64,000 nucleotides of DNA from Waddliaceae bacterium (GCA_963771045.1 CAVYRW010000004.1:401436-465435), one strand, 5' to 3'; counted from the first letter of the stretch, positions 8,001 through 29,133 are shown. Notes: a model not told the origin generated them from the sequence alone. Program-made: numbers and translations.

Positions 8001-8816
8001 TTGTTAGTATCTTGGTATCAAAGAAAAAGAACTCTTTGGAAAAAGTTTATCATAGGCATTGCACTTGTGAGTGTAATGCTTCCTTCGATAGCAGTGGCAT
8101 CACCAGCACACCAACCGTTTGCTGGATTTAATGCCAGCATAGGTGTTGGATTGGAGATGCCTAATATATCTAATGAAGCTAAGGCAAGCAATTTTGTTCC
8201 ATCTGTGGAGGATCTGTTTTTTACCGTATCTCGAAAAATGACCAACAATAAAGTCAATGGAGGGGTAAGATTAGGTTATTCCTGCATTTTTAAAGATCTC
8301 TTTTTGATTGGTTTGGCTGCTGATGCTATTTTTGGGAATAATAACCTAGACTTTGCTGCCACAATACGTGAAAATGGAACGGATTTACTAATAGAGCTAA
8401 ATTCAAATGTAAAGTTATCCAATCAATACGCCTTATTACTTAAATTTGGAAGGCAAGTGGGGAATAGGGCATTGTTGTACGGCTTGGTTGGACCTCGATG
8501 GGGAAATTTTTCTTTTACAATTAATAATGCCTTTAATCAAAATATTGGGCAGATTATTAACACAGGGTTAAGTACCCATACGAGTTATTACAAAACGGGC
8601 TGTGCGTTAGGAATAGGCACTGAGCTGCTACTTACCCGCTGTGTGAGTTTTGCACTTGAATATACACATACATTTTATCTACATCCTAAAATTTCGAACG
8701 AAGAAGCGCCCGTTACGAGCAATGGCGTTATAATACCTAATGCTGCTTTTACGCGAATGACTAAATTTAGTGCTCATAGCAATAACGTTATGATCCGCTT
8801 AGGTTACTACTTTTAA
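8001..8816 (+). CDS. Outer-membrane beta-barrel protein (Omp25/OmpA-TM-like)
   Basis: Signal-peptide-like N-terminus, alternating beta-strands, GCALGIGTE, ALEYTH, C-terminal RLGYYF; true start may be downstream. Confidence 0.8.
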   Translation: MLVSWYQRKRTLWKKFIIGIALVSVMLPSIAVASPAHQPFAGFNASIGVGLEMPNISNEAKASNFVPSVEDLFFTVSRKMTNNKVNGGVRLGYSCIFKDLFLIGLAADAIFGNNNLDFAATIRENGTDLLIELNSNVKLSNQYALLLKFGRQVGNRALLYGLVGPRWGNFSFTINNAFNQNIGQIINTGLSTHTSYYKTGCALGIGTELLLTRCVSFALEYTHTFYLHPKISNEEAPVTSNGVIIPNAAFTRMTKFSAHSNNVMIRLGYYF

Positions 8817-8910
8817 GAAAAGAAACTCCAAGAAAAACTTAAAAGGATTCAGTTTTCGATAGCTAGTGCTCTGTCAACCTAAATCTTTAAGTTGATAGGG
8901 TGCTAGTTGC

Positions 8911-8941
8911 AAAAAAGCAGAGCCAACCGGTTCTGCTTTTT
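8911..8941. terminator. Bidirectional hairpin terminator, cassette-end type
   Basis: AAAAAAGCAGAGCC-AACC-GGTTCTGCTTTTT; same family as 10778, 14503 and 24131. Confidence 0.75.
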
Positions 8942-8942
8942 A

Positions 8943-9104
8943 CCCGTGATTGTGACCTAATCTCGTTCGCCTCAGCAATTTTAGCAATCCATCTGCAAAC
9001 TTACCCTCCTCGGTAAGCTCTAAAGAGCTTACTCTTCGTCACGTAAGTTCACATCTGAATCACTAAAATCACTGAGGCGAACGAGATTAGGTTACAATCA
9101 CGGG
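8943..9104. mobile_element. 162-bp MITE-like element
   Basis: ~42-bp terminal IRs CCCGTGATTGTGACCTAATCTCGTTCGCCTCAG; flanked by TTTTA duplication; the empty site is visible at 10801-10815. Confidence 0.75.
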
Positions 9105-9116
9105 TTTTAGTCTGGA

Positions 9117-9154
9117 TGGAGGTGGAGAGACAAGTTCTGAATTTTTGGGTGGTC
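9117..9154. repeat. ssrA-derived att-like repeat a
   Basis: TGGAGGTGGAGAGA (identical to tmRNA 3' 14 bp) + CAAGTTCTGAATTTTTGGGTGGTC. Confidence 0.85.
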
Positions 9155-9314
9155 AAATATGGGTTCGAGTGTATCTGAGCTCATGTTAAAATTCTCCTAG
9201 TAGAAGTGAAATTAGCATTTTGATATGTTTAATACTATCAAATATCGATAATATGATCGTTAAAAGCGATCAAATACTTGTATATTGATAGGGATAATGC
9301 TATCATAAAGGTAA

Positions 9315-9803
9315 ATGTGTTGGAGGACCCTGCTCATGAAAAAGCCTAAACAGTCGGACAAACTGCTTCTGAAAGAGATTGCCAGTTCAGCATGTGACTT
9401 ACGACACAAACAACGAGGTCTTGAGATAGGCCAGCTCATTGCCCTTATCCGTAGCCAGCTTAGTATGTCGCAACGTATTTTAGCAAAAAGAGCAAAAGTT
9501 CCTCAATCAACCATATCGAATATAGAATCAGGACGGCTACAACCCAATATTGCTACCTTAAAAAAGATCTTAAATTCAATGGAGTGTGATTTGCTTATAA
9601 GCGTTATTCCGCGAGAAGAGTTTGAGATCACTCGAAGAAAACAGGCAGAGGCAAAGGCTAAAAGATCGATTCAGTATCTAGAGGGGACCATGAGCCTGGA
9701 AGCTCAGAAGCCGGACAATGGGCTGTTGCATGAGCTAATCAAGGAAAAAATAAAAAAACTATTGGATTCTTCAGGTCCAGAACTGTGGGAAGATGACTTG
9801 TGA
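9315..9803 (+). CDS. XRE HTH protein (mobile mystery protein A type)
   Basis: IRSQLSMSQRILAKRAKVPQSTISNIESG HTH; TMSLEAQ motif; GTGA overlap with the Fic gene. Confidence 0.8.
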   Translation: MCWRTLLMKKPKQSDKLLLKEIASSACDLRHKQRGLEIGQLIALIRSQLSMSQRILAKRAKVPQSTISNIESGRLQPNIATLKKILNSMECDLLISVIPREEFEITRRKQAEAKAKRSIQYLEGTMSLEAQKPDNGLLHELIKEKIKKLLDSSGPELWEDDL

Positions 9804-10774
9804 TGTTCTCCTATCCTGAAGGCGCAACCCCCATTGATGATATCAGCGGTCTCAAGCCCCCTTGGGTTAAAACACAGCAAGACTTGAATATAGTCGAGGC
9901 TGAGAATATCTCCATTGCAATTAACAAATATTTATTAAAGTCGATTGATTTACCGCAGCGTTGGTTTAATGTATCTACATTAAAAAAAATTCATCGAGAT
10001 ATGCTGTTTGATGTATGGGAATGGGCTGGCAAGTTTCGCAACATCCAAACTAGTGTTGGAATTAAGCCATATCAGATCCCTGGCGCACTGGAGAATCTTT
10101 GTTCTGACGTTCAGTTTTGGTGTAGTGAGGCTTGTGAGTTAACGCTAGTGGAACAAGCGGCCAGAGTTCATCATCAACTTGTTTTGATTCACCCATATCC
10201 AAATGGCAACGGCAGATTTTCCAGGCTTGTTTCAGATCGTTATCTCAAAGCTTGGAAGTGTCCATTTCCTACCTGGCCAACAGAATTGAACAGAGATGGA
10301 CGATGTCGAAAATGTTATATTGCAGCATTGAAGGAAGCTGATGCAGGCGACCATGAAGCTTTGGTTCAGTATATGATAGAATATGGAGCTAAGGATCCTG
10401 AACTGAGTGAGTTGCTGGGGCATGCCTTTTTTAGGCGGAACTTTAAAGGAGAGCGCTTGGTCAGCCTTGTAAAGGCCTGCATCCGCCGAGGCTGTTGTGG
10501 TAATGAAGAAGAAAAAAGTGGTCACCAACCACTGAACATTGCGCTTCGCCATGATCTAAGGGAGGTGGCCTTACTGCTTATAAATAATGGTGCAGATTTT
10601 AAACGGAAAGATCGCTCTGGTCTTAACGGCTTTGAGTGGGCCTTGACTAAAGAACTCTATGATATTGCTCACGAAATGGTCAAACGAGGTTATCCCTATA
10701 CTCCTCGGCATCCTAATCCGCAACTGAAGGTTCCCTATCAGAACCTATACCATTTTGACCTATACTATTTTTAA
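9800..10774 (+). CDS. Fic-domain protein (mobile mystery protein B type) with C-terminal ankyrin-like repeats
   Basis: GATPIDD..GL N-terminus; WEWAGKFR; HPYPNGNGRFSR Fic motif; GHQPLNIALRHD..VALLLINNGAD ankyrin-like tail. Confidence 0.85.
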   Translation: MMFSYPEGATPIDDISGLKPPWVKTQQDLNIVEAENISIAINKYLLKSIDLPQRWFNVSTLKKIHRDMLFDVWEWAGKFRNIQTSVGIKPYQIPGALENLCSDVQFWCSEACELTLVEQAARVHHQLVLIHPYPNGNGRFSRLVSDRYLKAWKCPFPTWPTELNRDGRCRKCYIAALKEADAGDHEALVQYMIEYGAKDPELSELLGHAFFRRNFKGERLVSLVKACIRRGCCGNEEEKSGHQPLNIALRHDLREVALLLINNGADFKRKDRSGLNGFEWALTKELYDIAHEMVKRGYPYTPRHPNPQLKVPYQNLYHFDLYYF

Positions 10775-10777
10775 ACT

Positions 10778-10807
10778 AAAAAACAGAACCAACCGGTTCT
10801 GCTTTTT
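10778..10807. terminator. Bidirectional hairpin terminator, cassette-end type
   Basis: AAAAAACAGAACC-AACC-GGTTCTGCTTTTT directly after the Fic stop. Confidence 0.8.
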
Positions 10808-10815
10808 AGTCTGGA

Positions 10816-10850
10816 TGTAGGTGGAGAGACAAGTTCAGAACTTTTGATTG
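10816..10850. repeat. ssrA-derived att-like repeat b
   Basis: TGTAGGTGGAGAGA (1 mismatch) + CAAGTTCAGAACTTTTGATTG. Confidence 0.87.
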
Positions 10851-10897
10851 AAAAGAAGTGGAAATACCTTTAGAGTTTGGGGACATCTAGAGTTTTT

Positions 10898-12295
10898 GAG
10901 GATGTCCCGTTTTTAGTTGAAATTCGGTGACTCCATATACCAGTTTACGCAACCTTTGTTTTTATTTCACTCTGAATTCGGATTATCCTTTCCCTTACCT
11001 CTTCGATTGAAAAATATCCTTTAACTTTTCGAAATCTTTTTTCTGCATCCAAGAGGGTTGTCCCCAACCATCTTTGCGCCATTTTACCCTTTGTTTGAAT
11101 ACGAGTTATACGGCCCATACGCCGGCTTGTATTTGAGAACACTGATTCAATCGGATTTGTGGAATGCAGTGTCTTCCTCAAACGAGGAGGCACTTTTAAA
11201 CAATGCACCGTGAGGAGTTCTTCAAAACACTCACGGAGAGATTCCGCTGCAGATGGGTTGATTGTTTCAAGCCAACTCTCCAATTTCTTGAGTTCATTCT
11301 TAGCATCTTCATACTCAAGGCAATTTATTGCATTTCGGAAGCGATGATGCGCTTCTTTTCGATATTTTTTGGGAAGATGCTTTTGGATATTTCTGTCTTT
11401 ATGAATCGTACATCTTTGATGTATAAGTAATTTTCCAAACCTATCCTTCAGAGCCTTAATGATCCCTTTTCCTCCATCGGTTATAAAAAGTATTTTCTCA
11501 TCAAGCTTTAGTCCTCTGCGGTCGAGATTGTTCAACAGCTCTTGACAAATCACATTATTCTCAGTTGCACCTTCCCAAAAACCAAGAGAATGCTTATTTC
11601 CTTCAAGATCAATTGCCATTGCCACAATAAAAACTTTTCCTGCCAGATGATAACCATCAATGAGGATAGCGAAGGGAGAAAAACTGCTTAAATCTCTATC
11701 TTTTAATTCTTTAAGCTGTTTACTTGTCGCCGCTTTCAAATGCCGTGAAACAGAGGATTTAGAAATACCGAAGTGGTCAAGCAAACCGTCCAGCGCACCC
11801 TCATACTCCCTGCAAGAGATCCCCTTTAAAGCTTTTTCTAAGAGATCATCAGAAAATCTATCCTTATTATTTAGTTCCTGATATACAGAGAGTTGGACTT
11901 CCTTTTTATCCTTCCGCAAACGTGGCTTTTTTACTTTTAATTTTTCTCCTCCCACATAAACAGAACCCGCCTGGGATCCCCATTTCTCCCATCCGGGCAG
12001 TGGATCGTATTTAGGTCCGGCAAGCATTTCTCTTTCTGAAGAAAAAAGAAACTCGATCAAGCATTTCTTTAAGGAAATAAAAAACTGATCGAAATCGTCC
12101 TTAGCAGCTCCAATGAGATAAGCAATTTTCTCTTCGGGGCATGCAAATGAGAGAAGATCTGTTGATTTATTCTGTGATGTGCGACTATTCATCTTGTGGC
12201 TCCTTTGTTTTTTTGTTTTTTGTCAAAATTACATATTGACTATAGGAGCCACCTCTTTTCAAGATAAAATTTCAACTAATTTTGGGACATTCTCT
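10898..12295 (-). mobile_element. IS256-family element
   Basis: Imperfect IRs GAG(G/A)ATGTCCC..TTAGTTGAAATT; GAGTTTTT duplicated at 10890-10897 and 12296-12303 (end +/-1). Confidence 0.85.
10945..12192 (-). CDS. IS256/mutator transposase
   Basis: KGISCREY, ILIDG, FITDGGKG, QRCTIHKDRN, STNPIESVF. Confidence 0.93.
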   Translation of the reverse strand: MNSRTSQNKSTDLLSFACPEEKIAYLIGAAKDDFDQFFISLKKCLIEFLFSSEREMLAGPKYDPLPGWEKWGSQAGSVYVGGEKLKVKKPRLRKDKKEVQLSVYQELNNKDRFSDDLLEKALKGISCREYEGALDGLLDHFGISKSSVSRHLKAATSKQLKELKDRDLSSFSPFAILIDGYHLAGKVFIVAMAIDLEGNKHSLGFWEGATENNVICQELLNNLDRRGLKLDEKILFITDGGKGIIKALKDRFGKLLIHQRCTIHKDRNIQKHLPKKYRKEAHHRFRNAINCLEYEDAKNELKKLESWLETINPSAAESLRECFEELLTVHCLKVPPRLRKTLHSTNPIESVFSNTSRRMGRITRIQTKGKMAQRWLGTTLLDAEKRFRKVKGYFSIEEVRERIIRIQSEIKTKVA

Positions 12296-12371
12296 GAGTT
12301 TTTTGTTTTTAAGTTAGAAATTTAATGTAGATGTTTGGAAATATGGTTACGATTAGGTTATTTGCGCTGAT

Positions 12372-14021
12372 ATGATTCGATTTACTCCGAAAATATTTAC
12401 CATTCTAAAAGAGGGATATAGTCTTACTGATTTACGCTCTGATGCATTTGCAGGTTTAACAGTAGCAATTGTAGCGCTGCCGTTGGCGATGGCTCTCGGT
12501 ATAGCAAGTGGTGCATCCCCAGAGCAGGGAATTATTACAGCAATTGTTGCAGGCTTTATCATCTCTCTCCTGGGTGGTTCACGTGTACAAATAGGTGGAC
12601 CAACAGGTGCTTTTGTTGTCATTTTATCTAGTGTAATTAGTAATCATGGGTATGATGGATTGCTTGTAGCAACAATGCTGGCTGGAATTATCTTGGTGCT
12701 AGCAGGTTATGCTGGATTGGGACAACTTATCAAGTTCATTCCTCAGCCGGTTATAACAGGGTTTACATCTGGGATAGCTGTTATTATCGCATCAACACAA
12801 CTCAAGGATTTTTTTGGGTTACAGGCTGACCCTTTTTCTAGCAGTTTTCTAGAAAATTGGAGTGCTTATTTAAATGGAATAAGGTTCCCAGTTGTTTCAA
12901 TTGGCTTATTGGCTATAGTTACGATTTATATTATGCGTCAATTTATGCCTCGAATGCCCCGCTATTTGATAGCCTTAATTTTATGTTCGGCATCGGTGAT
13001 TTTACTAGGTCTAGATGTAGATACGATTGGTTCTCGTTTTCCAAATATTTCGCTAGGAATTCCTATTCCAAAATGGCCGGAAATGTCCTTTTACAAAGTA
13101 CAACAAGTGCTGCCTTCAGCATTTATCATTGCATTTCTAGCTGGAGTAGAAGCGTTGCTTTCGGCTGTTGTGGCTGATGGAATGACTGGATATAGACATC
13201 GTTCTAATCAGGAACTAGTTGGTCAAGGGATTGCAAATTTTTCGTCAGCTTTATTTGGCGGTATTCCTGCTACAGGGGCAATAGCGCGTACTGCAACGAA
13301 CATCACTGCAGGAGGTAAAACCCCTTTCTCTGGAATTTTTCATGCTTGTTTTCTCCTTCTTTTTATCTTATTTGCAGCCGAAACAATGAAATTTGTTCCA
13401 ATGTCTGCACTTGCGGCGATTCTTTTCTTTGTTGCTTGGGAAATGAGTGAGGCAAATCGATTTGTTCGTACAGTGAGGTTTCCCGGAAGCGATAGAATTC
13501 TTTTACTAATGACGTTCGCGCTAACAATATTTGTTGATTTAACCGTTGCAATTGGGGTAGGAGTTACACTAGCGTCGCTTTTGTTTGTAGCCCGTATGGC
13601 GAAATCTATTGAAATTTTTAGAGACATAAAAGAAGGTGTTAGCCTAAATCAAGAAAATGAAAATCAAAGAGATGAGTTGCCAAGGGGAGTAGAAGTGTTT
13701 TGGATTGCAGGCCCGATTTTCTTCGGAATTGCAAGTGATATTCCAGAGCTTTTAAAAAAAATTGGCGAGAATCCAAAGGTTTTAATTATCCGGATGCGAC
13801 TTGTTCCATTTCTTGATAAAACAGGTGCTTCGGCTTTAAATGATTTGGTCAAGCAGTGCGACCTTAGAGGTATAAATATAATTTTTTCAGCTTTACAAGG
13901 TCAGCCTAATAAAATTTTGACAAAGTTCCATCGTGATAAAAAGTGGAATTGTGTGTATTATGCGAATTCATATAAAGATGCATTGGTGCTTGCAAACGAT
14001 AAAATAAACTTAAGTAAATAG
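12372..14021 (+). CDS. sulP: SulP/SLC26 anion transporter with STAS domain
   Basis: GLTVAIVALPLAMALGIASG, GSRVQIGGPTGAF, ELVGQGIAN, GAIARTATN; C-terminal STAS. Confidence 0.93.
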   Translation: MIRFTPKIFTILKEGYSLTDLRSDAFAGLTVAIVALPLAMALGIASGASPEQGIITAIVAGFIISLLGGSRVQIGGPTGAFVVILSSVISNHGYDGLLVATMLAGIILVLAGYAGLGQLIKFIPQPVITGFTSGIAVIIASTQLKDFFGLQADPFSSSFLENWSAYLNGIRFPVVSIGLLAIVTIYIMRQFMPRMPRYLIALILCSASVILLGLDVDTIGSRFPNISLGIPIPKWPEMSFYKVQQVLPSAFIIAFLAGVEALLSAVVADGMTGYRHRSNQELVGQGIANFSSALFGGIPATGAIARTATNITAGGKTPFSGIFHACFLLLFILFAAETMKFVPMSALAAILFFVAWEMSEANRFVRTVRFPGSDRILLLMTFALTIFVDLTVAIGVGVTLASLLFVARMAKSIEIFRDIKEGVSLNQENENQRDELPRGVEVFWIAGPIFFGIASDIPELLKKIGENPKVLIIRMRLVPFLDKTGASALNDLVKQCDLRGINIIFSALQGQPNKILTKFHRDKKWNCVYYANSYKDALVLANDKINLSK

Positions 14022-14122
14022 TGAATATCAATGTAAAAAGAGAAGCCTGCCGAATTTGATTGACTAATTCAATGCCGATGTCACCTTACTATTATATTTT
14101 TAGAAACAAGCAGAGGTTATTT

Positions 14123-14473
14123 ATGACAGATTTACCTAAATGTACCAAGTGCGGTTCTGAATACACCTACGAAAATGGAGCTTTGTATATTTGCCCGGAG
14201 TGTGGTCATGAATGGGCTGTTAATGTCGAGGAGGAAAACGAGACGATACAGTCTGTTGTAAAGGATGCGCATGGAAACGTCCTTCAGGACGGCGATAGTG
14301 TAACGATTATCAAAGATATAAAGGTCAAGGGTTCGTCATCGGCTATTAAAGTCGGTATAAAAGTGAAAAATATACGTCTCGTGGATGAGGTCAACGGTCA
14401 CAACATTGAAGCGAAGGTTCCTGGTTTTGGAGCGATGTTGCTTAAATCTGAGATTGTTAAAAGATGTAATTAG
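14123..14473 (+). CDS. phnA: PhnA/YjdM zinc-ribbon protein
   Basis: [25 protein letters not shown]; [24 protein letters not shown]. Confidence 0.92.
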
Positions 14474-14502
14474 CCACCAGCTTCCTTTGCATGCCTTAAT
14501 AT

Positions 14503-14535
14503 AAAAAAAACAGAACTTAATAGTTCTGTTTTTTT
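14503..14535. terminator. Bidirectional hairpin terminator, cassette-end type
   Basis: A8-CAGAAC-TTAATA-GTTCTG-T7 followed by TAGT-N5-TGAAGGT (degenerate att core). Confidence 0.75.
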
Positions 14536-14746
14536 AGTGCCGCTGAAGGTTTTCACCTCCGCGCACACTTTATTGAACGATAAAGGCTCGCAAATCGCTC
14601 CTCTTTTCAACGATCGTTCTTTGTTAAACCAAAAAGGTTTAGCTTCGTCGCGATGTAAGCGTAAGCGTCAATTAAACCCATCTTCTTTCTGATTTTCTTT
14701 CCGGTTATTCTTTCCTCAAAACTCGATAAAGAAGAGGAGGAAAGAT

Positions 14747-15064
14747 ATGCACAATGAACTATCGGATACAGCTTTGGTTTGGAAAGATAGAATCCAAGAT
14801 TGGCAGGCTAGCGGTAAGTCTTTAGCTCAGTGGAGCAGAGAAAATAATTTCGTCTATTCTCGCACCGTTTATTGGAAGGTGCGGTTCTTGGGATCTCAAA
14901 GCGAGAAACATTCATCTCCGAAAGGATTCTTGGAATTAAAGGATGAGAGTCGACCCGATGCCGGAATCATTATCGAAACGGCTGCAGGCCGCATCCATCT
15001 TTCAACTAACTTTGACCAATCTACGCTTGCTCGATGCCTGGAACTTTTAGGAAACCTATGCTGA
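14747..15064 (+). CDS. tnpA: IS66 TnpA
   Basis: WKDRIQDWQASGKSLAQWSRE HTH. Confidence 0.85.
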   Translation: MHNELSDTALVWKDRIQDWQASGKSLAQWSRENNFVYSRTVYWKVRFLGSQSEKHSSPKGFLELKDESRPDAGIIIETAAGRIHLSTNFDQSTLARCLELLGNLC

Positions 15065-15393
15065 CAATCACAGGAAATGCTCGTATTTTTGTCTTCGGCG
15101 AGCCGGTTAACATGAGAAAGAGTTTCGAGGGTTTATGCGCTATCGTAGAGCAATCCTTGGAAGAGCCGACATCAGGTGCTTTCTTTGTTTTTCTCAATCG
15201 CCAGCGCAATAAAATGAAAGTGCTCTACTGGGATAATGACGGTCTTGCGATCTGGTATAAGCGTCTTGAAAAAGGACGCTTTCCTCTTAAAGCTTCCGGA
15301 AAAATTGCCATGAACAGGAGGGATTTTTTCATGATGCTTGAAGGCATTATTCCCAAGCGGATCAGCACCCGATTTTTTCTCGAAAAAACTTAA
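15058..15393 (+). CDS. tnpB: IS66 TnpB
   Basis: PVNMRKSFEGL, FLNRQRNKMKVLYWDNDGLAIWYKRLEKGRF. Confidence 0.9.
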   Translation: MLTITGNARIFVFGEPVNMRKSFEGLCAIVEQSLEEPTSGAFFVFLNRQRNKMKVLYWDNDGLAIWYKRLEKGRFPLKASGKIAMNRRDFFMMLEGIIPKRISTRFFLEKT

Positions 15394-15437
15394 ATATTTC
15401 CTTTTTTTAGAGAGTGTTTTTTGGTAAAATATGGACT

Positions 15438-16991
15438 ATGAAAGCGATACAAAACCCTTCTATAGAACAGCTTCAGAAAGAAAATTCAGAACTCAAAAAT
15501 GAGATCAATTACTTCAAAGAACAACTGGAATGGTTCAAGCGCCAGATATTTGACAAACGCTCTGAAAAGATCATCCCCCAGAATGAAAATCAACTGGAAT
15601 TCGATGGCTTCGGTAATCTTCAAGGAGAATAAAAAGAAGAGAAAAAAACGGTTTCTTCCCATACAAGACGAAAGCTGAAAAGAAACGGAAAAGACAAAAT
15701 CACTCTACCCGAAGATATCCCAACGGAAGTTATTCCTGTCGACATTCCCGAAGAGGAGAAAGTATGCCCTGAAACAGGAAAACCTCTCGTAAAAATGGGG
15801 GAAGAGGTAACCTATAAGTTTGCTTGCAAGCCCACCAGCTATTACCTTAAAAAGTAAGTTCGTCCCAAGTACGTTTCTCCGGATCGTCCTGAGCATGGAG
15901 TTTCAATAGCGCCGCTTCCGGGTTTATTATTAGATCGTTGTTTTGCGGATGAAAGCCTGCTTGCAGACATTATGGTTAAGAAATACGCCGACCACTTGCC
16001 TCTATACCGCCAAAGTGAAATGCGCGCAAGGGAAGATGTTAGGATAAGCCGGCAAAACCTTTGCACATGGGTTGTAAAAGCGGGTCTCGCCTTAAAACCC
16101 TTGTATACATTAATGAAAACAAAAATTCTTGAAAGTGAAAATGCTTTTGCGGATGAAACTCCTGTCAAGATGCTGGATCCCGGAAGAGGAAAAACTAAAG
16201 AGTCTTATGTATGGGCGCTCGCTGGAGGAAAAACAAAAGATCCGCCTTATCGGATTTATCAATTTTTCGAAAACCGCAAGCATTGCAACGCGAAAGAACT
16301 TTTAAAAGGTTTCAAGGGGACTCTTCATTCCGATAAATATGGAGCTTATGAAACGCTGGCAAATATGAAGCAGTATACCTGGTGCCCCTGCATGGCGCAC
16401 ATTCGTCGTAAATTTTTCGATATCCAAAGCGGCGATAAAGAGTTTAAAGATTGGTTTTTAGCCCAAATTCAGGAGCTTTACAAGTATGAAAAAATCGCTT
16501 GGGAAAAATCCCCCGAAGAACGATTAAAAATACGGCGGGAAGATGAGGAGTCGATCATCAGCGAAATGATCAAACAGGCGAAAAAAAAGCTTCAAGACCA
16601 TAAAATTCTCCCAAAATCAAAACTAATGGCAGCGTTGAAGTATTTTTGCGGCCTTATTCCTCATCTTAAAAACTATATTAAAAATCCTTTTGCCCATCTT
16701 GATAACAATGTTGCCGAACGAGCAATACGTCCCTTGGCAATCGGTCGTAAAAACTGGCTCTTTTTTGGAAGCGCTAATGGAGGGGAAGCAGCAGGAATCA
16801 TATACTCCCTTATTCAAACATGCCGTGAACTTGGCATTAATCCCCACGAATATCTTGAAGATGTCATGCGCAGTTTAATGGATCACCCCGCAAACAAGCT
16901 GTACGAACTTCTCCCCGACCGCTGGGCTAAGGCAAAGGGGCTCTCGATCTCTAAAGAATCTGGAATAATTTTTCCAGATGGGCTTAAATGA
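15438..16991 (+). pseudogene. tnpC: IS66 TnpC with two nonsense mutations
   Basis: TAA at 15630-15632 and 15855-15857 where copy 2 has GAA and TAT. Confidence 0.9.
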
Positions 16992-17056
16992 CGCTTACGT
17001 CGCGATCGCGAAAATAGAAACAATTTGCGAGCCTTTCTCATTTCAAATAGTATGCT

Positions 17057-17097
17057 TGGAGGTGGAGAGACAAGTTCAGAACTTTTGATTGGTCAAA
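17057..17097. repeat. ssrA-derived att-like repeat c
   Basis: TAGT-N5-TGGAGGTGGAGAGA-CAAGTTCAGAACTTTTGATTGGTC. Confidence 0.9.
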
Positions 17098-18390
17098 CCT
17101 ATATAGGCGATTGGTTTTCCATGGCTTGAATCAATCGATGCAGTTGTCCCAATAGATAGAAAGGCAAAGAGAGCAGGGTGTATTGTACAGGTGAACCGTC
17201 GGAAGTTCTCACTTGTATTGGAGTTATTGAAGGATAATCAGAATTTATCCTAACAGCTAGGCTTCTTCCTTTAAGCTGCATGAATTGATGAAGCGACTTA
17301 AGAGTTCCTGTGCTACCGGCTTTCACTTCAACTGGAACAACTTTGTTTCCGTGCTGAATCACATAGTCAATCTCAGCATTTGCTCCCGAATCGGTACGTT
17401 GCCAATAGTTTAACGAAGGAGAAGCGTAGGGTGGGAATAAGGTTCTTAACTGCTGGCCAACTAGCTGTTCTGCTATGCCGCCGCTGTTGACTAAGTTTAG
17501 TTCGGATACTGACCTTAGCTGATGTAGAGAGAGTCCTAGTTCAGCGCTAGCCAGACCACAGTCCAGCAAAATGACTTTGAAGAATTTGTTTTTGATTTCT
17601 GCATTCAGAGGTAAACCATTTGCGGAGGTTGCAAATGCGCGATGACACACACGGGCTTTATCTAGTAAGTCGAGAGCTTGTTTAAGTGGGGGAGTATTAA
17701 CCTCTGAATTGGCGTGTGAGTAGATGAATTTTTTCCCAAGCTGGCGTGGTACTGAAGCTAAAAGGTCTTCTAGCCGGGCAGTTGATAGACGGCCTCGATA
17801 TTTAGCGAAGTCCTCACGGTAAGTAGCTAGTAGGTCGAAGTGAATCTGATTGAGTGCGTCGAGGTTTTCCTGAGAACTCCAGCATGAAACAGCGGCGGGC
17901 ATGCCACCAGTGACTAGGTACTTTTTTACAGCTGAGAAAAGCTGTGTATGAATGGCATCGGGAATGACTTTGTCTAGCTGATAAGCTTGCAGGAACTTTC
18001 GGAGCTCATGATGCCCAACTGCATCCAAAAACTCTTCGAATGATAGTGGCTCCAGATACATATAACCGATTCGTCCCACCGGCATGCTGAATTCATGCTC
18101 AGCCAGAGCGAAGTCCAATAGAGAGCCGGCAGCCACAACAGGGAGTTCCGGCATATCTTCTGCAAACCAACGCAGTTTAGCGAGCAGGTGAGGTGCGGCT
18201 TGTATTTCATCCAGGAATAATATGGTATTTGATGGTTCGACAACTTTTCCCTGAGATGCTGCAATATTGGCAATGATTTCTTTGGGTTCATTTGAGTTAA
18301 ACAAGGATTCAAGATTTGGTAGCTTCTCAAAGTTTAACTCAGTAAGTTGTCTATTTGCCGATGTAGCTAGGTCTCGAATGAGCGTAAGCG

Positions 18391-19944
18391 TCATTTAAGC
18401 CCATCTGGAAAAATTATTCCAGATTCTTTAGAGATCGAGAGCCCCTTTGCCTTAGCCCAGCGGTCGGGGAGAAGTTCGTACAGCTTGTTTGCGGGGTGAT
18501 CCATTAAACTGCGCATGACATCTTCAAGATATTCGTGGGGATTAATGCCAAGTTCACGGCATGTTTGAATAAGGGAGTATATGATTCCTGCTGCTTCCCC
18601 TCCATTAGCGCTTCCAAAAAAGAGCCAGTTTTTACGACCGATTGCCAAGGGACGTATTGCTCGTTCGGCAACATTGTTATCAAGATGGGCAAAAGGATTT
18701 TTAATATAGTTTTTAAGATGAGGAATAAGGCCGCAAAAATACTTCAACGCTGCCATTAGTTTTGATTTTGGGAGAATTTTATGGTCTTGAAGCTTTTTTT
18801 TCGCCTGTTTGATCATTTCGCTGATGATTGGCTCCTCATCTTCCCGCCGTATTTTTAATCGTTCTTCGGGGGATTTTCCCCAAGCGATTTTTTCATACTT
18901 GTAAAGCTCCTGAATTTGGGCTAAAAACCAATCTTTAAACTCTTTATCGCCGCTTTGGATATCGAAAAATTTACGACGAATGTGCGCCATGCAGGGGCAC
19001 CAGGTATACTGCTTCATATTTGCCAGCGTTTCATAAGCTCCATATTTATCGGAATGAAGAGTCCCCTTGAAACCTTTTAAAAGTTCTTTCGCGTTGCAAT
19101 GCTTGCGGTTTTCGAAAAATTGATAAATCCGATAAGGCGGATCTTTTGTTTTTCCTCCAGCGAGCGCCCATACATAAGACTCTTTAGTTTTTCCTCTTCC
19201 GGGATCCAGCATCTTGACAGGAGTTTCATCCGCAAAAGCATTTTCACTTTCAAGAATTTTTGTTTTCATTAATGTATACAAGGGTTTTAAGGCGAGACCC
19301 GCTTTTACAACCCATGTGCAAAGGTTTTGCCGGCTTATCCTAACATCTTCCCTTGCGCGCATTTCACTTTGACGGTATAGAGGCAAGTGGTCGGCGTATT
19401 TCTTAACCATAATGTCTGCAAGCAGGCTTTCATCCGCAAAACAACGATCTAATAATGAACCCGGAAGCGGCGCTATTGAAACTCCATGCTCAGGACGATC
19501 CGGAGAAACGTACTTGGGACGAACATACTTTTTAAGGTAATAGCTGGTGGGCTTGCAAGCAAGCTTATAGGTTACCTCTTCCCCCATTTTTACGAGAGGT
19601 TTTCCTGTTTCAGGGCATACTTTCTCCTCTTCGGGAATGTCGACAGGAATAACTTCCGTTGGGATATCTTCGGGTAGAGTGATTTTGTCTTTTCCGTTTC
19701 TTTTCAGCTTTCGTCTTGTATGGGAAGAAACCGTTTTTTTCTCTTCTTTTTCTTCTCCTTGAAGATTACCGAAGCCATCGAATTCCAGTTGATTTTCATT
19801 CTGGGGGATGATCTTTTCAGAGCGTTTGCCAAATATCTGGCGCTTGAACCATTCCAGTTGTTCTTTGAAGTAATTGATCTCATTTTTGAGTTCTGAATTT
19901 TCTTTCTGAAGCTGTTCTATAGAAGGGTTTTGTATCGCTTTCAT
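18391..19944 (-). CDS. tnpC: IS66 transposase TnpC
   Basis: FGKRSEK, KYADHLPLYRQ, ADETPV, CMAHIRRKF, DNNVAERAIRP. Confidence 0.93.
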   Translation of the reverse strand: MKAIQNPSIEQLQKENSELKNEINYFKEQLEWFKRQIFGKRSEKIIPQNENQLEFDGFGNLQGEEKEEKKTVSSHTRRKLKRNGKDKITLPEDIPTEVIPVDIPEEEKVCPETGKPLVKMGEEVTYKLACKPTSYYLKKYVRPKYVSPDRPEHGVSIAPLPGSLLDRCFADESLLADIMVKKYADHLPLYRQSEMRAREDVRISRQNLCTWVVKAGLALKPLYTLMKTKILESENAFADETPVKMLDPGRGKTKESYVWALAGGKTKDPPYRIYQFFENRKHCNAKELLKGFKGTLHSDKYGAYETLANMKQYTWCPCMAHIRRKFFDIQSGDKEFKDWFLAQIQELYKYEKIAWGKSPEERLKIRREDEEPIISEMIKQAKKKLQDHKILPKSKLMAALKYFCGLIPHLKNYIKNPFAHLDNNVAERAIRPLAIGRKNWLFFGSANGGEAAGIIYSLIQTCRELGINPHEYLEDVMRSLMDHPANKLYELLPDRWAKAKGLSISKESGIIFPDGLK

Positions 19945-19988
19945 AGTCCATATTTTACCAAAAAACACTCTCTAAAAAAAGGAAATAT

Positions 19989-20324
19989 TTAAGTTTTTTC
20001 GAGAAAAAATCGGGTGCTGATCCGCTTGGGAATAATGCCTTCAAGCATCATGAAAAAATCCCTCCTGTTCATGGCAATTTTTCCGGAAGCTTTAAGAGGA
20101 AAGCGTCCTTTTTCAAGACGCTTATACCAGATCGCAAGACCGTCATTATCCCAGTAGAGCACTTTCATTTTATTGCGCTGGCGATTGAGAAAAACAAAGA
20201 AAGCACCTGATGTCGGCTCTTCCAAGGATTGCTCTACGATAGCGCATAAACCCTCGAAACTCTTTCTCATGTTAACCGGCTCGCCGAAGACAAAAATACG
20301 AGCATTTCCTGTGATTGTCAGCAT
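19989..20324 (-). CDS. tnpB: IS66 TnpB
   Basis: Identical protein to copy 1. Confidence 0.9.
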   Translation of the reverse strand: MLTITGNARIFVFGEPVNMRKSFEGLCAIVEQSLEEPTSGAFFVFLNRQRNKMKVLYWDNDGLAIWYKRLEKGRFPLKASGKIAMNRRDFFMMLEGIIPKRISTRFFLEKT

Positions 20325-20635
20325 AGGTTTCCTAAAAGTTCCAGGCATCGAGCAAGCGTAGATTGGTCAAAGTTAGTTGAAAGATGGATGCGGCCTGCAG
20401 CCGTTTCGATAATGATTCCGGCATCGGGTCGACTCTCATCCTTTAATTCCAAGAATCCTTTCGGAGATGAATGTTTCTCGCTTTGAGATCCCAAGAACCG
20501 CACCTTCCAATAAACGGTGCGAGAATAGACGAAATTATTTTCTCTGCTCCACTGAGCTAAAGACTTACCGCTAGCCTGCCAATCTTGGATTCTATCTTTC
20601 CAAACCAAAGCTGTATCCGATAGTTCATTGTGCAT
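20318..20635 (-). CDS. tnpA: IS66 TnpA
   Basis: Identical protein to copy 1. Confidence 0.85.
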   Translation of the reverse strand: MHNELSDTALVWKDRIQDWQASGKSLAQWSRENNFVYSRTVYWKVRFLGSQSEKHSSPKGFLELKDESRPDAGIIIETAAGRIHLSTNFDQSTLARCLELLGNLC

Positions 20636-20869
20636 ATCTTTCCTCCCCTTCTTTATCGAGTTTTGAGGAAAGAATAACCGGAAAGAAAATCAGAAAGAAG
20701 ATGGGTTTAATTGACGCTTACGAATGAGCCAAGTTTTTCCTGTTTGCCGTGCTCCTCGAATTACCAATGGCTTTCGGGTTTTTGAATTCAGCCAGTCAAC
20801 TAAGAAAGTCGTACGGTCGCGCTTCATATTATTCACTCCTTTATCTTAATTTTAGCCAATTCTTTTGTT

Positions 20870-20931
20870 TAAGTCTAGAAAATAAAGGGGTGTTTTTGAT
20901 TGTAAGTCTAGAAAATAGGTGGGTGTTTTGA
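20870..20931. repeat. 33-bp-period direct repeat upstream of the AAA ATPase gene
   Basis: TAAGTCTAGAAAATA(AAGG/GGTG)GGTGTTTT twice (20870, 20903). Confidence 0.7.
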
Positions 20932-21099
20932 AGGCCAGCGTTAGAAATTTGTAAGTGTAGGGATAGTAGCCGCCTTTAGCTGCAGAAATGGCTTCCTGAT
21001 GTGATACAGATAGCTGAAAATAGACCTTATTGGTGAAAACGGGTTGGATTCATCCATTTATGAAAAAGACTGTAATGTTTGACTGTCTTTAGTAAGGTT

Positions 21100-21135
21100 T
21101 GGAGGTGGAGAGACAAGTTCAGAACTTTTGATTGG
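21100..21135. repeat. ssrA-derived att-like repeat d
   Basis: TAGT-N6-TGGAGGTGGAGAGA-CAAGTTCAGAACTTTTGATTGG. Confidence 0.9.
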
Positions 21136-21164
21136 AGTAAAACCAGAAGTTTTCTTGATGGGGG

Positions 21165-21674
21165 CTATTCAAGGTCAGGGGCTGTAATCTTAAACTGAGA
21201 AGCTAAATGCTCTGATAAATCCTTCATCAACTGTTGCCCTTCTCCTGGTTTTTGAACTGGGCGTTTTGATGTTGATAGTAGCAGAGCAATATTCAAACAG
21301 TTTTGAGCTTTTTCAAATAGCGTTTGATGATGATGTACCAAAGGTTCATTATACACTAAGTTTTCCAGTGCCTTTGTTAAAAAGGGATTTTCATTTTTCC
21401 CTACATATCGGAAGTTTATTTTTAACTCACAAGCTAGTGACTTAAGGCGATTGGTGAATCGAGTTTGCGCTTCTCGTCTTTCCTTCCTATCATTTAAGTA
21501 GAGTGAAATCTTGCCTCCGATGAGTCCCGATATTATAGTTACAAGAGTGCTTATACAAAAAGTCAAAAGGGGATTCTGCTGAAAATTTTCTATAAATTCG
21601 GGCACTTTTGGAGCAACAATTGCAAAGATTATCTGAATATTTTTTTTGAAAGTTGTAAGCAAGAAAAAATACAT
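21165..21674 (-). CDS. Hypothetical single-TM membrane protein
   Basis: Hydrophobic LLTFCISTLVTIISGLIGG followed by a charged helix; start uncertain. Confidence 0.5.
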   Translation of the reverse strand: MYFFLLTTFKKNIQIIFAIVAPKVPEFIENFQQNPLLTFCISTLVTIISGLIGGKISLYLNDRKERREAQTRFTNRLKSLACELKINFRYVGKNENPFLTKALENLVYNEPLVHHHQTLFEKAQNCLNIALLLSTSKRPVQKPGEGQQLMKDLSEHLASQFKITAPDLE

Positions 21675-21676
21675 AT

Positions 21677-22138
21677 TTATACAACGACAAGGTCAGTTGG
21701 GACATCAAATTCAAGAGGTTCGATTGGGTGAGAGTAATCAGCCATATGAACGATTTTAAATGCTCTTCGGAAATCATCATCTTTCGTTAATAGTTGGTCT
21801 AGAAGCCATAATCTTAAATCTCTTTGCGTAGTCAAATTCATTTTAGAGCCCTTATTCCCTGTTTTTTCCCATTTCACAACAGCGGGATGTGTGACGCCAA
21901 AAAGCTTACCAAATTCAGTCTGAGTCAGCCCCAGCCAATTCCGAATGTAACGAATTTGATTGCCTGTCAAGTCGGATGGATGATGTGCAAGAGCTAGCAG
22001 AACAACCTTTTGTAAAACATTGAGGTCAACATCCAGTGTCCAAACTTCACGAAGCTCTATCATCGGAACATTGCGAAGAATAACTGGAAAGCCCAATCCT
22101 TCGTATACAACTTCTTTTTCAACTTTCTGTTTTTTCAT
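21677..22138 (-). CDS. HTH antitoxin-like protein (MqsA/HigA-like)
   Basis: YEGLGFPVILRNVP; LTGNQIRYIRNWLGLTQTEFGKLFGVTHPAVVKWE. Confidence 0.8.
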   Translation of the reverse strand: MKKQKVEKEVVYEGLGFPVILRNVPMIELREVWTLDVDLNVLQKVVLLALAHHPSDLTGNQIRYIRNWLGLTQTEFGKLFGVTHPAVVKWEKTGNKGSKMNLTTQRDLRLWLLDQLLTKDDDFRRAFKIVHMADYSHPIEPLEFDVPTDLVVV

Positions 22139-22142
22139 ATTT

Positions 22143-22461
22143 TCAATGCCTCCCCTCAAGGTAAAAGGCGGTTATAATTAAAAGGTCTTTCTCTTCATCG
22201 AATGAGACAATCACTCTTAGCTCCATTTCATCTATTGTCTTTCCACGTATGGCATAATTCCAAGTATTAAAAGCTTTTTCAAAGTGGTCTTTGCTTTTCT
22301 CATGCCTTCCGGTTCTTAGCACATGGATAATTTCAGGTAAGGTAATGTTTCTCTCGGCTTTTCTCTCAATGGCGTGAAAAGTATTTCGATATGCTCCTGA
22401 GCCTGCAATTTCTGACACGCTCTAGGAGGTTTTCTATCTTTTTGGGTCTTTTCGATGGCAA
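22143..22461 (-). pseudogene. DUF4258 (RelE/BrnT-like) toxin partner with N-terminal frameshift
   Basis: TTG 22461 with RBS gives MPSKRPKKIENLLERVRNC; a shifted frame gives SGAYRNTFHAIERKAERNI..WNYAIRGKT..LRVIVSF..IITAF. Confidence 0.62.
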
Positions 22462-22485
22462 GAGTATTTATCCCTTTTTACTTTT

Positions 22486-22514
22486 AATGTAACTGAGTGA
22501 CATTTAATTGTCAA
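22486..22514 (-). promoter_or_regulatory. Sigma70-type promoter with overlapping operator
   Basis: TTGACA-17-TACATT; IR AATGTAAC-TGA-GTGACATT over the -10. Confidence 0.55.
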
Positions 22515-22581
22515 GGGTTAGAAAACGGGAGAAAGAGAATACACCTAAACTATTTAATATAAGATATTTGAAAAAGATAAA

Positions 22582-22619
22582 TGGAGGTGGTTGGACACGT
22601 TCAGAACTTTTGACTGGGG
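22582..22619. repeat. ssrA-derived att-like repeat e (degenerate)
   Basis: TGGAGGTGGTTGGA-CACGTTCAGAACTTTTGACTGGGG. Confidence 0.78.
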
Positions 22620-22968
22620 CTCGTTGGATGAATTTTCAAGAAAATGGTAGGGTCGGGATCGCGGGAGAATAATATGTTAGAGAGGATAGATCACAAAAAT
22701 TACACCACTTTACTGCACTCCAAAGAGGTTATCAGTGGGCAGCGCTATCCATTCCCGTTTCTGTGGTGTCAATATTAGTAGGCGCTGCTCTGCGACGTCC
22801 AGTTTAGTGAGCGAGCAGAATCCATAACTACTTCATCTTGTTAAATCGGTCATTATTGGAAATCGAATTCATGAATAAATGATTATCTGGTAGTGTTGAG
22901 AATATTTAACAAGTCTTGAAGATATTTGTAATATGAGTAATAAATCCTGCATTGAGAACGACCGGCAT

Positions 22969-24126
22969 ATGACCAGCATCTTTGAGAGGTACCTCACCGT
23001 CTGGGTCGGATTATGTATCGTGGGAGGAATTTACCTTGGTAAAGCGGCCCCGGGACTTGCAAAAACACTTGATGGCATGAGTATTAGTGTTAATGGAGCA
23101 CCGGTTGTTTCCATTCCTGTTGCTATCTGTCTGTTTTTCATGATGTACCCGATCATGGTCAAGGTCGACTTCACAAGCGTGGTGAAAGCTGGTAAGAGTG
23201 TAAAACCCGTTTTTCTGACTCTGTTCATTAACTGGTGCATCAAGCCGTTCACCATGTATGCCATAGCCATGCTGTTTCTTGGTTTTCTATTTAAAGGATT
23301 GATTGGAGCCGATGCAATAGATCTGGTGAAGATGCCTTTTGGCCTTGATCTGCCTGTCGGAGTGGAGCATGGCGCGGGTACTGTGGTGTTGCACGACGGT
23401 GTCAAAATGCTTGAGATCCCTCTGTGGCGCAGTTATTTTGCCGGGTGTATCCTCTTAGGAATAGCACCCTGCACAGCTATGGTTCTTGTTTGGGGATACT
23501 TAGCTCAGGGGAATGATAGCCTGACACTAGTCATGGTTGCTATCAACTCTCTGGCTATGTTGCTGCTTTATGGCGTGCTAGGAGGGTTCTTGCTGGGCAT
23601 CGGTCAGTTACCTGTTCCATGGCAGGCACTTCTGCTTTCTGTGGCTATTTATGTGGCACTACCACTTGTTGCAGGGTATTTCTCTCGTAAATGGGTTATC
23701 GGAAACAAAGGAGAAGATTGGTTCAAAGAAAAATTTCTTCATATCTTAACGCCAGTGACCATCAGTGCACTATTGCTGACACTGGTGCTGTTGTTCAGTT
23801 TCAAAGGAGAAACCATTCTTGCTAACCCGCTAACTATTTTGTGGATCTCGATCCCATTGTTAATTCAGACGGTATTCATTTTTGGATTGGGATACGTCGG
23901 AGCAAAGATTCTTAAACTAAAATATGAAGATGCCGCTCCAGCCGCTATGATCGGTGCATCGAATCACTTTGAAGTTGCTATTGCCACTTCTGTTATGCTG
24001 TTTGGGCTCTCCTCCGGTGCCGCACTTGCCACAGTGGTCGGTGTACTCATTGAAGTGCCTGTAATGCTGATGTTGGTTGGTTTCTGCAAAAGAACAGTCG
24101 GCTGGTTTAATACAGAAAAGGTATAG
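22969..24126 (+). CDS. acr3: Acr3 arsenite efflux transporter
   Basis: [61 protein letters not shown]. Confidence 0.95.
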
Positions 24127-24130
24127 AAAC

Positions 24131-24161
24131 AAAAAAACAGAACCGAAAGGTTCTGCTTTTT
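24131..24161. terminator. Bidirectional terminator for ssrA and acr3
   Basis: A7-CAGAACC-GAAA-GGTTCTG-CT5. Confidence 0.85.
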
Positions 24162-24170
24162 AGTACTGAT

Positions 24171-24581
24171 TGGAGGTGGAGAGAATCGAACTCTCGTCCT
24201 TAGCGAACGCCATAGTGACCACTACATGCTTAGTGTCCTGTATCAGATCGGTCTTGCTGCAGGGCACCCCACTAAGGGACCGAACGGTTTCTTGTTTTCT
24301 CGAACAAGGCTCTTAGAAACCAACCGAAGCCCGGTTCATACCAAGTAAATGACGACAATCCAAAAATCCCTGGTCCAACTTAAGGTTGTCGGGCTACTTA
24401 TTCAGTTAAGATTAAGCAGCAACTAGAGCCAAAGAATCGTCTGCTACTGGAGCAAAATCGCCTTTGACTATTTTTGATTCATTTTTAGCATTTATAGCTT
24501 AGCCGGTTTTTTTAGGAGGCCAACCGACATCCTCCGCATGCAATCAATACTTGATTCCCAAGTCGAAACCAGTACACCCCC
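24171..24581 (-). ncRNA. ssrA: tmRNA
   Basis: 5' GGGGGTGTACTGGTTTCGAC; 3' GAGAGTTCGATTCTCTCCACCTCCA; acceptor GGGGGTG/CACCTCC with G3-U; tag ORF 24489-24412 (A)AKNESKIVKGDFAPVADDSLALVAA*; CCA not encoded. Confidence 0.97.
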
Positions 24582-25959: not shown

Positions 25960-26015
25960 GGATTTTTAACTTTTGTGTTACTATACTATGCTATTTAAAT
26001 AAAAGGAATCCAGAA

Positions 26016-29000: not shown

Positions 29001-29133
29001 TGAAGAACATGGCGATTATATCAAACAGGAAGTGCTCGCTAAGACGGTCGCATTCTCCGAATGCGATGGGACCGAGTGGGACCTAAACGGCGAGAAGACC
29101 ATCATAAAGATAGAAAACGTTAATCCATCTTGA
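26016..29133 (+). CDS. ileS: Isoleucyl-tRNA synthetase (type 2), one apparent frameshift near 28135
   Basis: PFATGLPHYGH, GWDCHGLP, AWTTTPWTL, DWAISRNRYWGTP, EGLDQTRGWF, KMSKR; shifted frame resumes ELTNWYIRRSRRRFW. Confidence 0.95.

Follow-up and report, generated by a model that had tools for sequence, protein, structure and literature searches.

Integrons, and the clusters of attC sites that lack an integron integrase (CALINs), are ordered arrays of cassettes of one to three genes, which are bounded by a short core, share one primary insertion site and carry a cargo rich in toxin–antitoxin and accessory genes. The same description fits the arrays considered here, which were followed from a 64-kb stretch (the window) of the 2.29-Mb source chromosome of a Waddliaceae bacterium (GCA_963771045.1, CAVYRW010000004.1:401436-465435) into about 50 related loci (L numbers), the other contigs being inspected over at most about 20 kb each. 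They lie at the 3′ end of ssrA, the gene for transfer-messenger RNA (tmRNA). The explanation favored here, with moderate confidence, is that five or more non-autonomous gene cassettes stand in tandem in the window, and that a recombinase encoded elsewhere placed them site-specifically at the 3′ end of ssrA. Full-text searches turned up no earlier account of arrays of this kind in Chlamydiae, and the new aspect is an ssrA site-specific traffic reduced to integrase-less cassettes with a lineage-wide conserved arm.

The likeness to integrons includes the absence of a neighboring integrase, as in CALINs, and a hairpin element (HE) which, like attC, combines an inverted core, a palindrome conserved in structure but variable in sequence, and a direct core. 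By its architecture, the HE is the most attC-like part of the system. However, the chlamydial arrays have no IntI and no attI beside an integrase, either in the window or in the roughly 50 related loci, and their primary site is provided by an essential RNA gene, at its 3′ end. Over the 36 nucleotides (nt) of the cassette site, sequence and not only structure is conserved, while most cassettes have no palindromic attC. The attC signature (RYYYAAC...GTTRRRY) is not present: the 36-nt site is one-sided, and the HE cores read CCACCTCC and GGAGGTGG. Cassette genes run both ways (42:36 over 46 intervals), so that there can be no single Pc-driven expression, and the cassettes usually bring a terminator for ssrA. 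Because there is no IntI, no attC at most junctions and a mixed gene orientation, the arrays cannot be counted among the integrons.

Genomic islands can stand in tandem at tRNA and tmRNA genes, a situation that Williams reportedly described in 2003 as traffic at the tmRNA gene. As in the chlamydial arrays, the islands defined in Islander (PMC4383910) target the 3′ end of ssrA, regenerate the gene with element sequence, leave displaced 3′ fragments as direct repeats at their boundaries and receive incomers next to the gene; an intact tmRNA gene together with a displaced 3′ fragment repeat is found in the window and in L003, L012, L037 and L046. These islands carry their own integrase by definition and typically measure 5-100 kb (PMC4383910), whereas the chlamydial units measure about 1.4 kb, have no integrase, share one arm across families and number up to six or more per array. 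Since the arrays carry no integrase, the definition of an island does not cover them. The tycheposons of Prochlorococcus (bioRxiv 10.1101/2020.12.28.424599) shuttle plug-in cassettes of adaptive genes at seven tRNA genes, including that of tmRNA, and successive integrations displace older elements inward to the island. In contrast to the chlamydial cassettes, which have neither, they possess their own tyrosine recombinase and often replication genes (bioRxiv 10.1101/2020.12.28.424599). Among published cargo shuttles at tRNA and tmRNA genes, they come closest.

In Streptococcus, the cis-mobilizable elements (CIMEs), known for their accretion with ICESt3-type elements, are flanked by att sites, have no recombination genes and are thought to be moved by the integrase of a related element with the same att site. 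In the chlamydial arrays, too, functional-looking att sites flank units without recombination or transfer genes. CIMEs are usually single, larger and accompanied by a known integrative and conjugative element with the same att site, whereas no integrase-bearing element with the chlamydial arm was found beside the approximately 90 sites of the 50 or so loci, nor in plasmid, phage and viral collections. In its mode of operation, the chlamydial system would be integron-like (one primary site, many small cassettes, an enzyme outside the cassette) and would also resemble CIME-type units mobilized in trans.

Core, arm and junctions at ssrA

The terminal 14 nt of the tmRNA correspond to TGGAGGTGGAGAGA in plus-strand letters (reverse complement). 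This 14-mer has five matches in the window against 0.35 expected, a count reached in 0 of 100 shuffles: it is exact at 9117, 17057, 21100 and 24171 and has one mismatch at 10816, always in the same orientation. A degenerate copy at 22582 (TGGAGGTGGTTGGA) agrees at 11 of 14 positions, and the copies away from the tmRNA thus number five, all direct, spanning 9.1 to 22.6 kb. Directly after the core follows an arm, CAAGTTCAGAACTTTTGATTGG, which is exact at 17071 and 21114, has one mismatch at 10830 and two at 22596 (four matches, none expected), and is more diverged at 9131 (CAAGTTCTGAATTTTTGGGTGG). The core of the tmRNA itself has no arm, and the sequence there runs on as ATCGAACTCTCG. The arm is conserved over 22-29 nt, and the 64-kb window contains no arm-core site beyond the array copies. 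After subtraction of insertion sequences (ISs), the intervals measure 1589, 1482, 1695 (4043-2348), 2483 (6241-2353-1405) and 1699 nt. The recurrence of the 14-mer, the shared arm absent from the tmRNA and the interval sizes had all been claimed in a preliminary description of this DNA and agree with the present counts. Its further motif, TAGT-N5-6, does stand upstream of every core copy in the window except that at 22582 and is common to related distal ends of the source genome, but it is not conserved in the wider family.

To find the site elsewhere, a degenerate pattern over part of the core and arm was scanned against GTDB species representatives and metagenomes. Among the former, 20 loci in 15 genomes match, with the 36-nt site nearly invariant; 11 of these genomes bear labels of the Chlamydiae group (Chlamydiae, Chlamydiales, Parachlamydiales, Waddliaceae), three are labeled "uncultured bacterium" and one Aerophobetes. 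In the Aerophobetes-labeled contig, as in the window, the isoleucyl-tRNA synthetase gene adjoins the tmRNA gene. A further 30 loci match in metagenomes, and a site profile built from the matches detects about 90 copies in about 45 contigs besides the window, nearly all labeled Chlamydiae. The helix-turn-helix (HTH) antitoxin family, used as a search anchor, led to one further array, L058; this module of DUF4258 and HTH genes, or only its HTH gene, is present outside arm-core arrays as well (L057:9676-10462, L059:10001-10465), flanked by housekeeping genes of a chlamydial contig of 1.45 Mb and of a Simkaniaceae metagenome-assembled genome (MAG). As an anchor for the ssrA regions of relatives, crcB was abandoned, being non-syntenic with ssrA elsewhere.

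All sites of a contig are co-oriented (20 contigs with at least two sites, up to six per contig). Among the arrays whose near end was within reach, those of the window, L003, L012, L046, L037 and L034 stop at a tmRNA gene that is intact and lies on the expected strand, and those of L007, L009, L023, L051 and L044 at a short 3′ fragment of the tmRNA gene, made up of the core and 9-30 nt of the T arm. The sites are therefore not scattered: they occur nowhere else in the window, and elsewhere they form co-oriented arrays that end at ssrA, at an ssrA fragment or, once, at a tRNA-Tyr gene. The tmRNA 3′ fragments have two lengths, core plus ATCGAACTC and core plus ATCGAACTCTCGTCC..., and stand at the near ends of arrays or inside them (L007:2599-2650, L009:839-870, L023, L051, L044/L005). 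They would be leftovers of events in which a different element with a deeper ssrA crossover displaced the old 3′ end together with its array, and they point to two or more further classes of element that integrate at ssrA, the crossover lying at the T loop in one case and beyond the T stem in another.

Across 63 non-redundant junctions, the 36 nt of core and arm carry 1.5-2 bits per position, the variable spots being GGA[GAG/TTG]GA and C[AA/AC/GC]G. Across the core from the arm, the distal flanks are unrelated between cassettes (about 0 bits), although they usually hold a hairpin with a T run that ends 3-15 nt before the core; four examples from the window are listed in Table 1. Read in the tmRNA sense, this hairpin is a terminator just past the tmRNA 3′ end, so that the cassettes seem built to adjoin and terminate ssrA, which is indirect evidence for insertion at the ssrA-proximal core. 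The hairpin nearest to ssrA in the window is predicted to serve both ssrA and the convergent ACR3 gene. The median length of 46 intervals between sites is 1.4 kb (range 243-6241), and each of these intervals contains one to three open reading frames (ORFs). Their ends also differ from those of ISs and of miniature inverted-repeat transposable elements (MITEs): cargo cassettes have no terminal inverted repeats, one end being the arm and the other a variable terminator, whereas the IS66 copies in the same array, as an internal control, do show inverted repeats and 8-bp duplications. Two other roles for the site were considered and rejected. The arm has no consistent sigma-70-like signal that would make it a promoter, and arm and core are not the 3′ part of a tRNA-like gene, as the cassette-side sequence is unconserved and the arm does not fold as a T arm.

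Cassette turnover and the recombinase

The cassettes are mobile, and their content and order turn over between relatives. Cassette B of the window (21107-22588; cassettes A to E are listed in Table 1) and the first cassette of L037 agree at 95.8% of positions over 1487 nt, the tmRNAs of the two loci being only about 70% identical. In L037 this cassette lies first at ssrA, whereas in the window the ACR3 cassette sits between it and ssrA. L022 and L023 share a 99.7% identical cassette, with identity starting exactly at the core and unrelated neighbors beyond it. The same Fic cassette adjoins the tmRNA gene in L003 and is internal in L027, and the identity stops after TGGAGGTGG. L005 and L044 are 95% identical up to the core and then continue with arm and cassette (L005) or with a tmRNA fragment (L044); they form a pair of an occupied and an unoccupied site, the only such polymorphism found. 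In L011, L012, L014 and L016, modules are combined in differing order, and the junction site is sometimes lost.

These comparisons also locate the exchange. Homology between the window and L037 breaks after TGGAGGT, and the variants GGAGAGA and GGTTGGA lie on the arm side, as part of the cassette arm; the exchange is therefore placed within TGGAGGT(GG), the only segment common to all junction types. On the plus strand, this crossover core occupies 24171-24179, i.e., the final 7-9 nt of the tmRNA, and is thus shorter than the 14-nt core first proposed.

A site-specific recombinase was not found in about 300 kb of arrays. Every ORF of at least 90 amino acids (aa) between 9.1 and 24.2 kb of the window was scanned with Pfam, NCBIfam or PADLOC; transposases of IS66 and IS256 appeared, but no site-specific recombinase, and a tblastn search with XerD, IntA and lambda Int detected no integrase fragments in this array. 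Its intervals had initially been described as free of recombinases, and none of them holds integrase remnants. In the other loci, a Pfam summary of 104 ORFs (L001-L020) has no integrase among the listed families, targeted Pfam scans of recurrent and large cassette ORFs gave no recombinase, and phmmer, hmmsearch and tblastn with XerD, E. coli IntA and lambda Int yielded nothing across all loci. As phmmer is weak across integrase subfamilies (IntA against XerD, E=1.4), a very divergent family could escape in loci without a Pfam scan. The sole tyrosine recombinase of the window is a frameshifted XerD equivalog at 57993-58873, 34 kb from ssrA (TIGR02225, 5e-85; integron-integrase models far below cut-off), and there is none between 1 and 57 kb. 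Inside a cassette between two sites lies an IS605-type element with divergent TnpB and Y1 TnpA (L058:6149-7805, Waddliaceae contig CAVVNU010000017.1). It is multi-copy in its MAG and encodes the only HUH transposase near any array; the window has no Y1 gene.

A cassette consists of an arm (GGAGAGA or GGTTGGA and then CAAGTTCAGAACTTTTGATTGG), one to three genes that may face either way and have their own expression signals, an unconserved distal end, usually with a rho-independent terminator, and the core TGGAGGT(GG). According to the favored explanation, a recombinase encoded outside the array would exchange strands inside the 7-9-nt core between ssrA, at its 3′ end, and a free cassette of the order distal end-core-arm. 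Such an event would restore an intact tmRNA, supply a new ssrA terminator and push older cassettes outward, while recombination among neighboring sites would excise or shuffle cassettes. The reaction would be a conservative site-specific recombination with a circular intermediate and an enzyme acting in trans. By analogy, this enzyme is most likely a tyrosine recombinase, since integration at the 3′ end of a tRNA or tmRNA gene depends on such an enzyme in every characterized element (Islander, PMC4383910). The newest cassette is likely, but not exclusively, the one nearest to the tmRNA. Cassette-wise insertion at the ssrA end, which the preliminary description had proposed, is supported by the L005/L044 pair and by the position of the ACR3 cassette, in the window, between the tmRNA and the toxin–antitoxin cassette which is the first one in L037; its term "integron-analogue" does not extend to membership of the integrons.

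Several observations speak against this explanation. No recombinase was found for the arrays in the stretches covered, and no vector is known, as the 36-nt site has no match among PLSDB plasmids, INPHARED phages and IMG/VR. Neither a circular junction nor an empty ssrA site in the same strain was seen, and L021, which alone among the other contigs carries the ACR3 cassette, runs colinear with the window and is not a circle. Conservation on only one side of the crossover is atypical of classical tyrosine-recombinase attP sites. In one pair of cassettes that are 97.5% identical, the arm and the ~45 nt beyond it differ, a mosaic boundary which indicates that homologous exchange also shapes the arrays. 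Finally, one AbiEi/AbiEii cassette abuts a tRNA-Tyr gene and not ssrA (L010:1212-1295, 3147-3183). The 3′ end of this tRNA gene, CCACCCCCA, is one base off the tmRNA core, the far end of the cassette is a normal arm-core site, and CATTTACCA is repeated after both cassette junctions; the tRNA-Tyr 3′ end is a possible secondary attachment site.

Hairpin element and competing explanations

The HE is a 175-nt palindrome found at about one quarter of the junctions and also directly against intact tmRNA genes. It always abuts the core, in one orientation, and is ordered as follows: a partial core TGGAGGT, 2-3 nt, an inverted core CCACCTCCA, a variable arm, a conserved center with its own hairpin, the complementary arm and a full core. 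Copies occur in the window, L002, L008/L037, L011, L022, L023, L026/L027, L034, L035, L040 and L051. Twelve distinct copies fold as one rod of 47 pairs, 28 of them with compensatory changes, and 89.9% of the cells are paired, compared with 73.6% in shuffles (0/500) and 36-47% in slid controls. Few pairs are G-T and the two strands fold equally well, which points to a structure at the level of DNA and not of RNA. The HE has no family match in Rfam, where HE and site gave only chance hairpin matches to miRNA precursors; ARAGORN miscalls the copy of L034 as a permuted tmRNA. In the window, the HE has the partial core TGAAGGT and the inverted core CACCTCC and is split by IS66 copy 1 (14655-16999, target-site duplication GTCGCGAT). 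HE insertion can be expressed as recombination inside TGGAGGT alone.

The existence of the HE, together with the one-sided site, keeps alive a mechanism that uses a folded single strand, with hairpin sites as in integron attC, the attP of CTX phage or the IS200/IS605-type ends cut by HUH Y1 transposases. The HE would then be the archetypal substrate, and cargo cassettes would use the arm palindrome AAGTT-CTG-AACTT. In line with this, the HE is rod-like, with the inverted core at one tip and the direct core at the other, and has covarying pairs, few G-T pairs as expected for DNA and a fixed orientation at the core; the site is conserved on one side only, insertion is always 3′ of ACCTCCA (tmRNA sense), and one Waddliaceae array contains the IS605 with Y1 TnpA. 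This mechanism is nevertheless unlikely, as the HE stands at only about a quarter of the junctions, the hairpins at the distal ends of cargo cassettes are terminators of the ordinary kind, variable in sequence, and do not constitute a conserved second end, and the stem of the arm palindrome has only 5 bp. The window contains no IntI or Y1 gene, and the single IS605 is a multi-copy IS of its MAG. With respect to IS200/IS605-type elements and palindrome-associated transposable elements (PATE), insertion in a single orientation 3′ of ACCTCCA would fit, the two ends of the cargo are unlike each other, and Y1_Tnp is present in one Waddliaceae contig only.

A second alternative, that the intervals are decay products of integrase-bearing ssrA islands which lost the integrase and most other genes, is improbable. 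Tandem islands and degraded remnants are well known at tRNA and tmRNA genes (Islander, PMC4383910; tycheposons), the window is rich in ISs and frameshifted genes, and island classes with deeper ssrA crossovers are present in the studied loci. However, about 90 site-bounded units hold no integrase gene or fragment, and their sizes are tightly grouped around 1.4 kb. Intact, near-identical cassettes with exact site-to-site bounds are found in divergent hosts at differing positions, and the arm, which decay would erase, is kept across families.

Hijacking of the housekeeping recombinases XerC and XerD, by cassettes resembling integrative mobile elements exploiting Xer (IMEX) or pdif modules, is more doubtful still. 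The pdif modules of Acinetobacter and IMEX are small and recombinase-less, carry resistance or toxin–antitoxin cargo between short sites and rely on a housekeeping recombinase; Xer-dependent elements and pdif modules can also form arrays, and XerD is the only tyrosine recombinase encoded in the window. Yet pdif sites are dif-like 28-mers of alternating orientation on plasmids, whereas the chlamydial sites are chromosomal direct repeats anchored at ssrA and are not dif-like. By inspection, the 36-nt site has no dif-like 28-bp organization with XerC/XerD arms and a 6-bp spacer, no XerD-arm motif (TTATGTAAACT-like) and no 11-6-11 symmetry. The chlamydial dif itself is a canonical, Firmicutes-like 28-bp palindrome at the terminus (PMC3025954). 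The target here is the tmRNA end and not dif, and the xerD of the window is frameshifted.

Homologous recombination alone, through DNA uptake and RecA exchange between the 36-nt repeats without a dedicated recombinase, could account for the mosaic boundary and for modules fused where a junction site was lost, but is very improbable, as the 7-14 nt shared at the ssrA junction and the 7 nt at HE junctions are too short for efficient RecA action, the distal flanks are unrelated between cassettes and the break points are precise and identical across many independent junctions.

Cassette cargo and significance for environmental Chlamydiae

The cargo of the cassettes consists mostly of Fic, AbiE, DUF4258-HTH, PDC-S01, RhuM, ACR3 and SulP genes, with type I restriction and outer-membrane proteins among the other kinds; these are mainly toxin–antitoxin or candidate defense genes, plus transporters. 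The cassettes of the window, in which genes lie in mixed orientations, are given in Table 1.

Table 1. Coordinates of the tmRNA gene, cassettes and associated features in the window.
Feature	Position	Strand	Details
tmRNA gene (ssrA), proposed primary attachment site	24171-24581	-	ARAGORN; Rfam RF00023, 148 bits; sequence
Cassette A, ssrA-proximal	22582-24170	+	variant site 22582-22617 (TGGAGGT GGTTGGA CACGTTCAGAACTTTTGACTGG)
ACR3 arsenite efflux gene, cassette A	22933-24126		NCBIfam acr3, 5e-113
Bidirectional terminator hairpin, distal (P′) end of cassette A	24132-24161	.	13-bp stem, T run on both strands; repeat family D3
Cassette B	21100-22581	+	site 21100-21135
DUF4258 toxin-like gene, cassette B	22143-22418	-
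HTH partner gene, cassette B	21677-22159	-
169-aa ORF of unknown function, cassette B	21165-21674	-
Cassette C	17057-21099	+	site 17057-17092
AAA_14/DUF4143 ATPase gene, cassette C	~20826 to 17099	-	PADLOC PDC-S01, 5e-134
Cassette D	10816-17056	+	site 10816-10851; also holds IS66 copy 1
IS256-family insertion, cassette D	~10898-12294
SulP permease gene, cassette D	12372-14021
PhnA/YjdM gene, cassette D	14060-14473
Terminator, cassette D	14503-14535
HE, window copy	14544-17070 (14544-14654 + 17000-17070)	+	inverted repeat I3; ends in 17057 core
Cassette E	9117-10815	+	degenerate site 9117-9152
HTH gene, cassette E	9315-9803
Fic-ankyrin gene, cassette E	9800-10774		"mobile mystery protein B", PADLOC PDC-S04/SoFic
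Terminator, cassette E	10784-10801
Older cassette remnant (probable)	8001-9116	+	arm gone under IS1/IS21
Outer-membrane beta-barrel gene in probable remnant	8001-8816
P′-type terminator in probable remnant	8910-8942		164-nt MITE (8942-9105) between terminator and 9117 core

The array is overlaid by several insertions. Two IS66-family copies (14655-16999 and 18383-20722) stand in inverted relative orientation and differ at 10 positions; copy 1 has a stop codon within tnpC and a duplication of the 6-nt GTAAGC at its left end, and copy 2 interrupts the ATPase gene of cassette C (target-site duplication GAATGAGC). As each copy has its own 8-bp target duplication, no inversion has occurred between them. 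The distal end of the array is masked by an IS21-family element (intact istB, fragmented istA) and IS1-like copies (3825-6940 and 7084-7815), and no arm remnants were found distal to 9117, where the end is hidden by IS1 and IS21; a second IS1-like copy lies near 60576. The MITE-like element of about 164 nt has 63-nt inverted arms, ends in CCCGTGATTGTGACCTAATCT and is flanked by an apparent TTTTA duplication, with copies of its ends at 49809-49845 and 59321-59401. In the remainder of the window, ileS (25953-29133), pgi (55598-57216) and xerD (57993-58873) are each spread over two to three reading frames, which reflects either assembly indel errors or real pseudogenization in an IS-rich genome, and a 2935-aa ORF of unknown function (32787-41594) lies upstream of the ssrA region.

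The 36-nt site offers a simple search key, in metagenomes, for the chlamydial mobile gene pool and for the missing recombinase, which might serve as a compact, sequence-specific tool for integration. The routes of gene gain in obligate intracellular bacteria are usually considered limited. The arrays indicate a dedicated and widely shared insertion platform in environmental Chlamydiae, in which small modules are stockpiled and exchanged. A more far-reaching version of this idea is tentative: the platform may be a lineage-wide, integron-like capture system, with the ssrA 3′ end as the equivalent of attI, a host-encoded and possibly domesticated or novel recombinase acting in trans, the 29-nt arm as a tag and the HE as an attC-like or empty cassette, trading defense, toxin–antitoxin and transporter genes among intracellular bacteria that share amoebal or other eukaryotic hosts. 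If true, this would be a second, independently evolved answer to the problem solved by integrons, how to serve many small cassettes with a single site and a single enzyme, and it would be built on an essential RNA gene whose terminator each cassette must supply.

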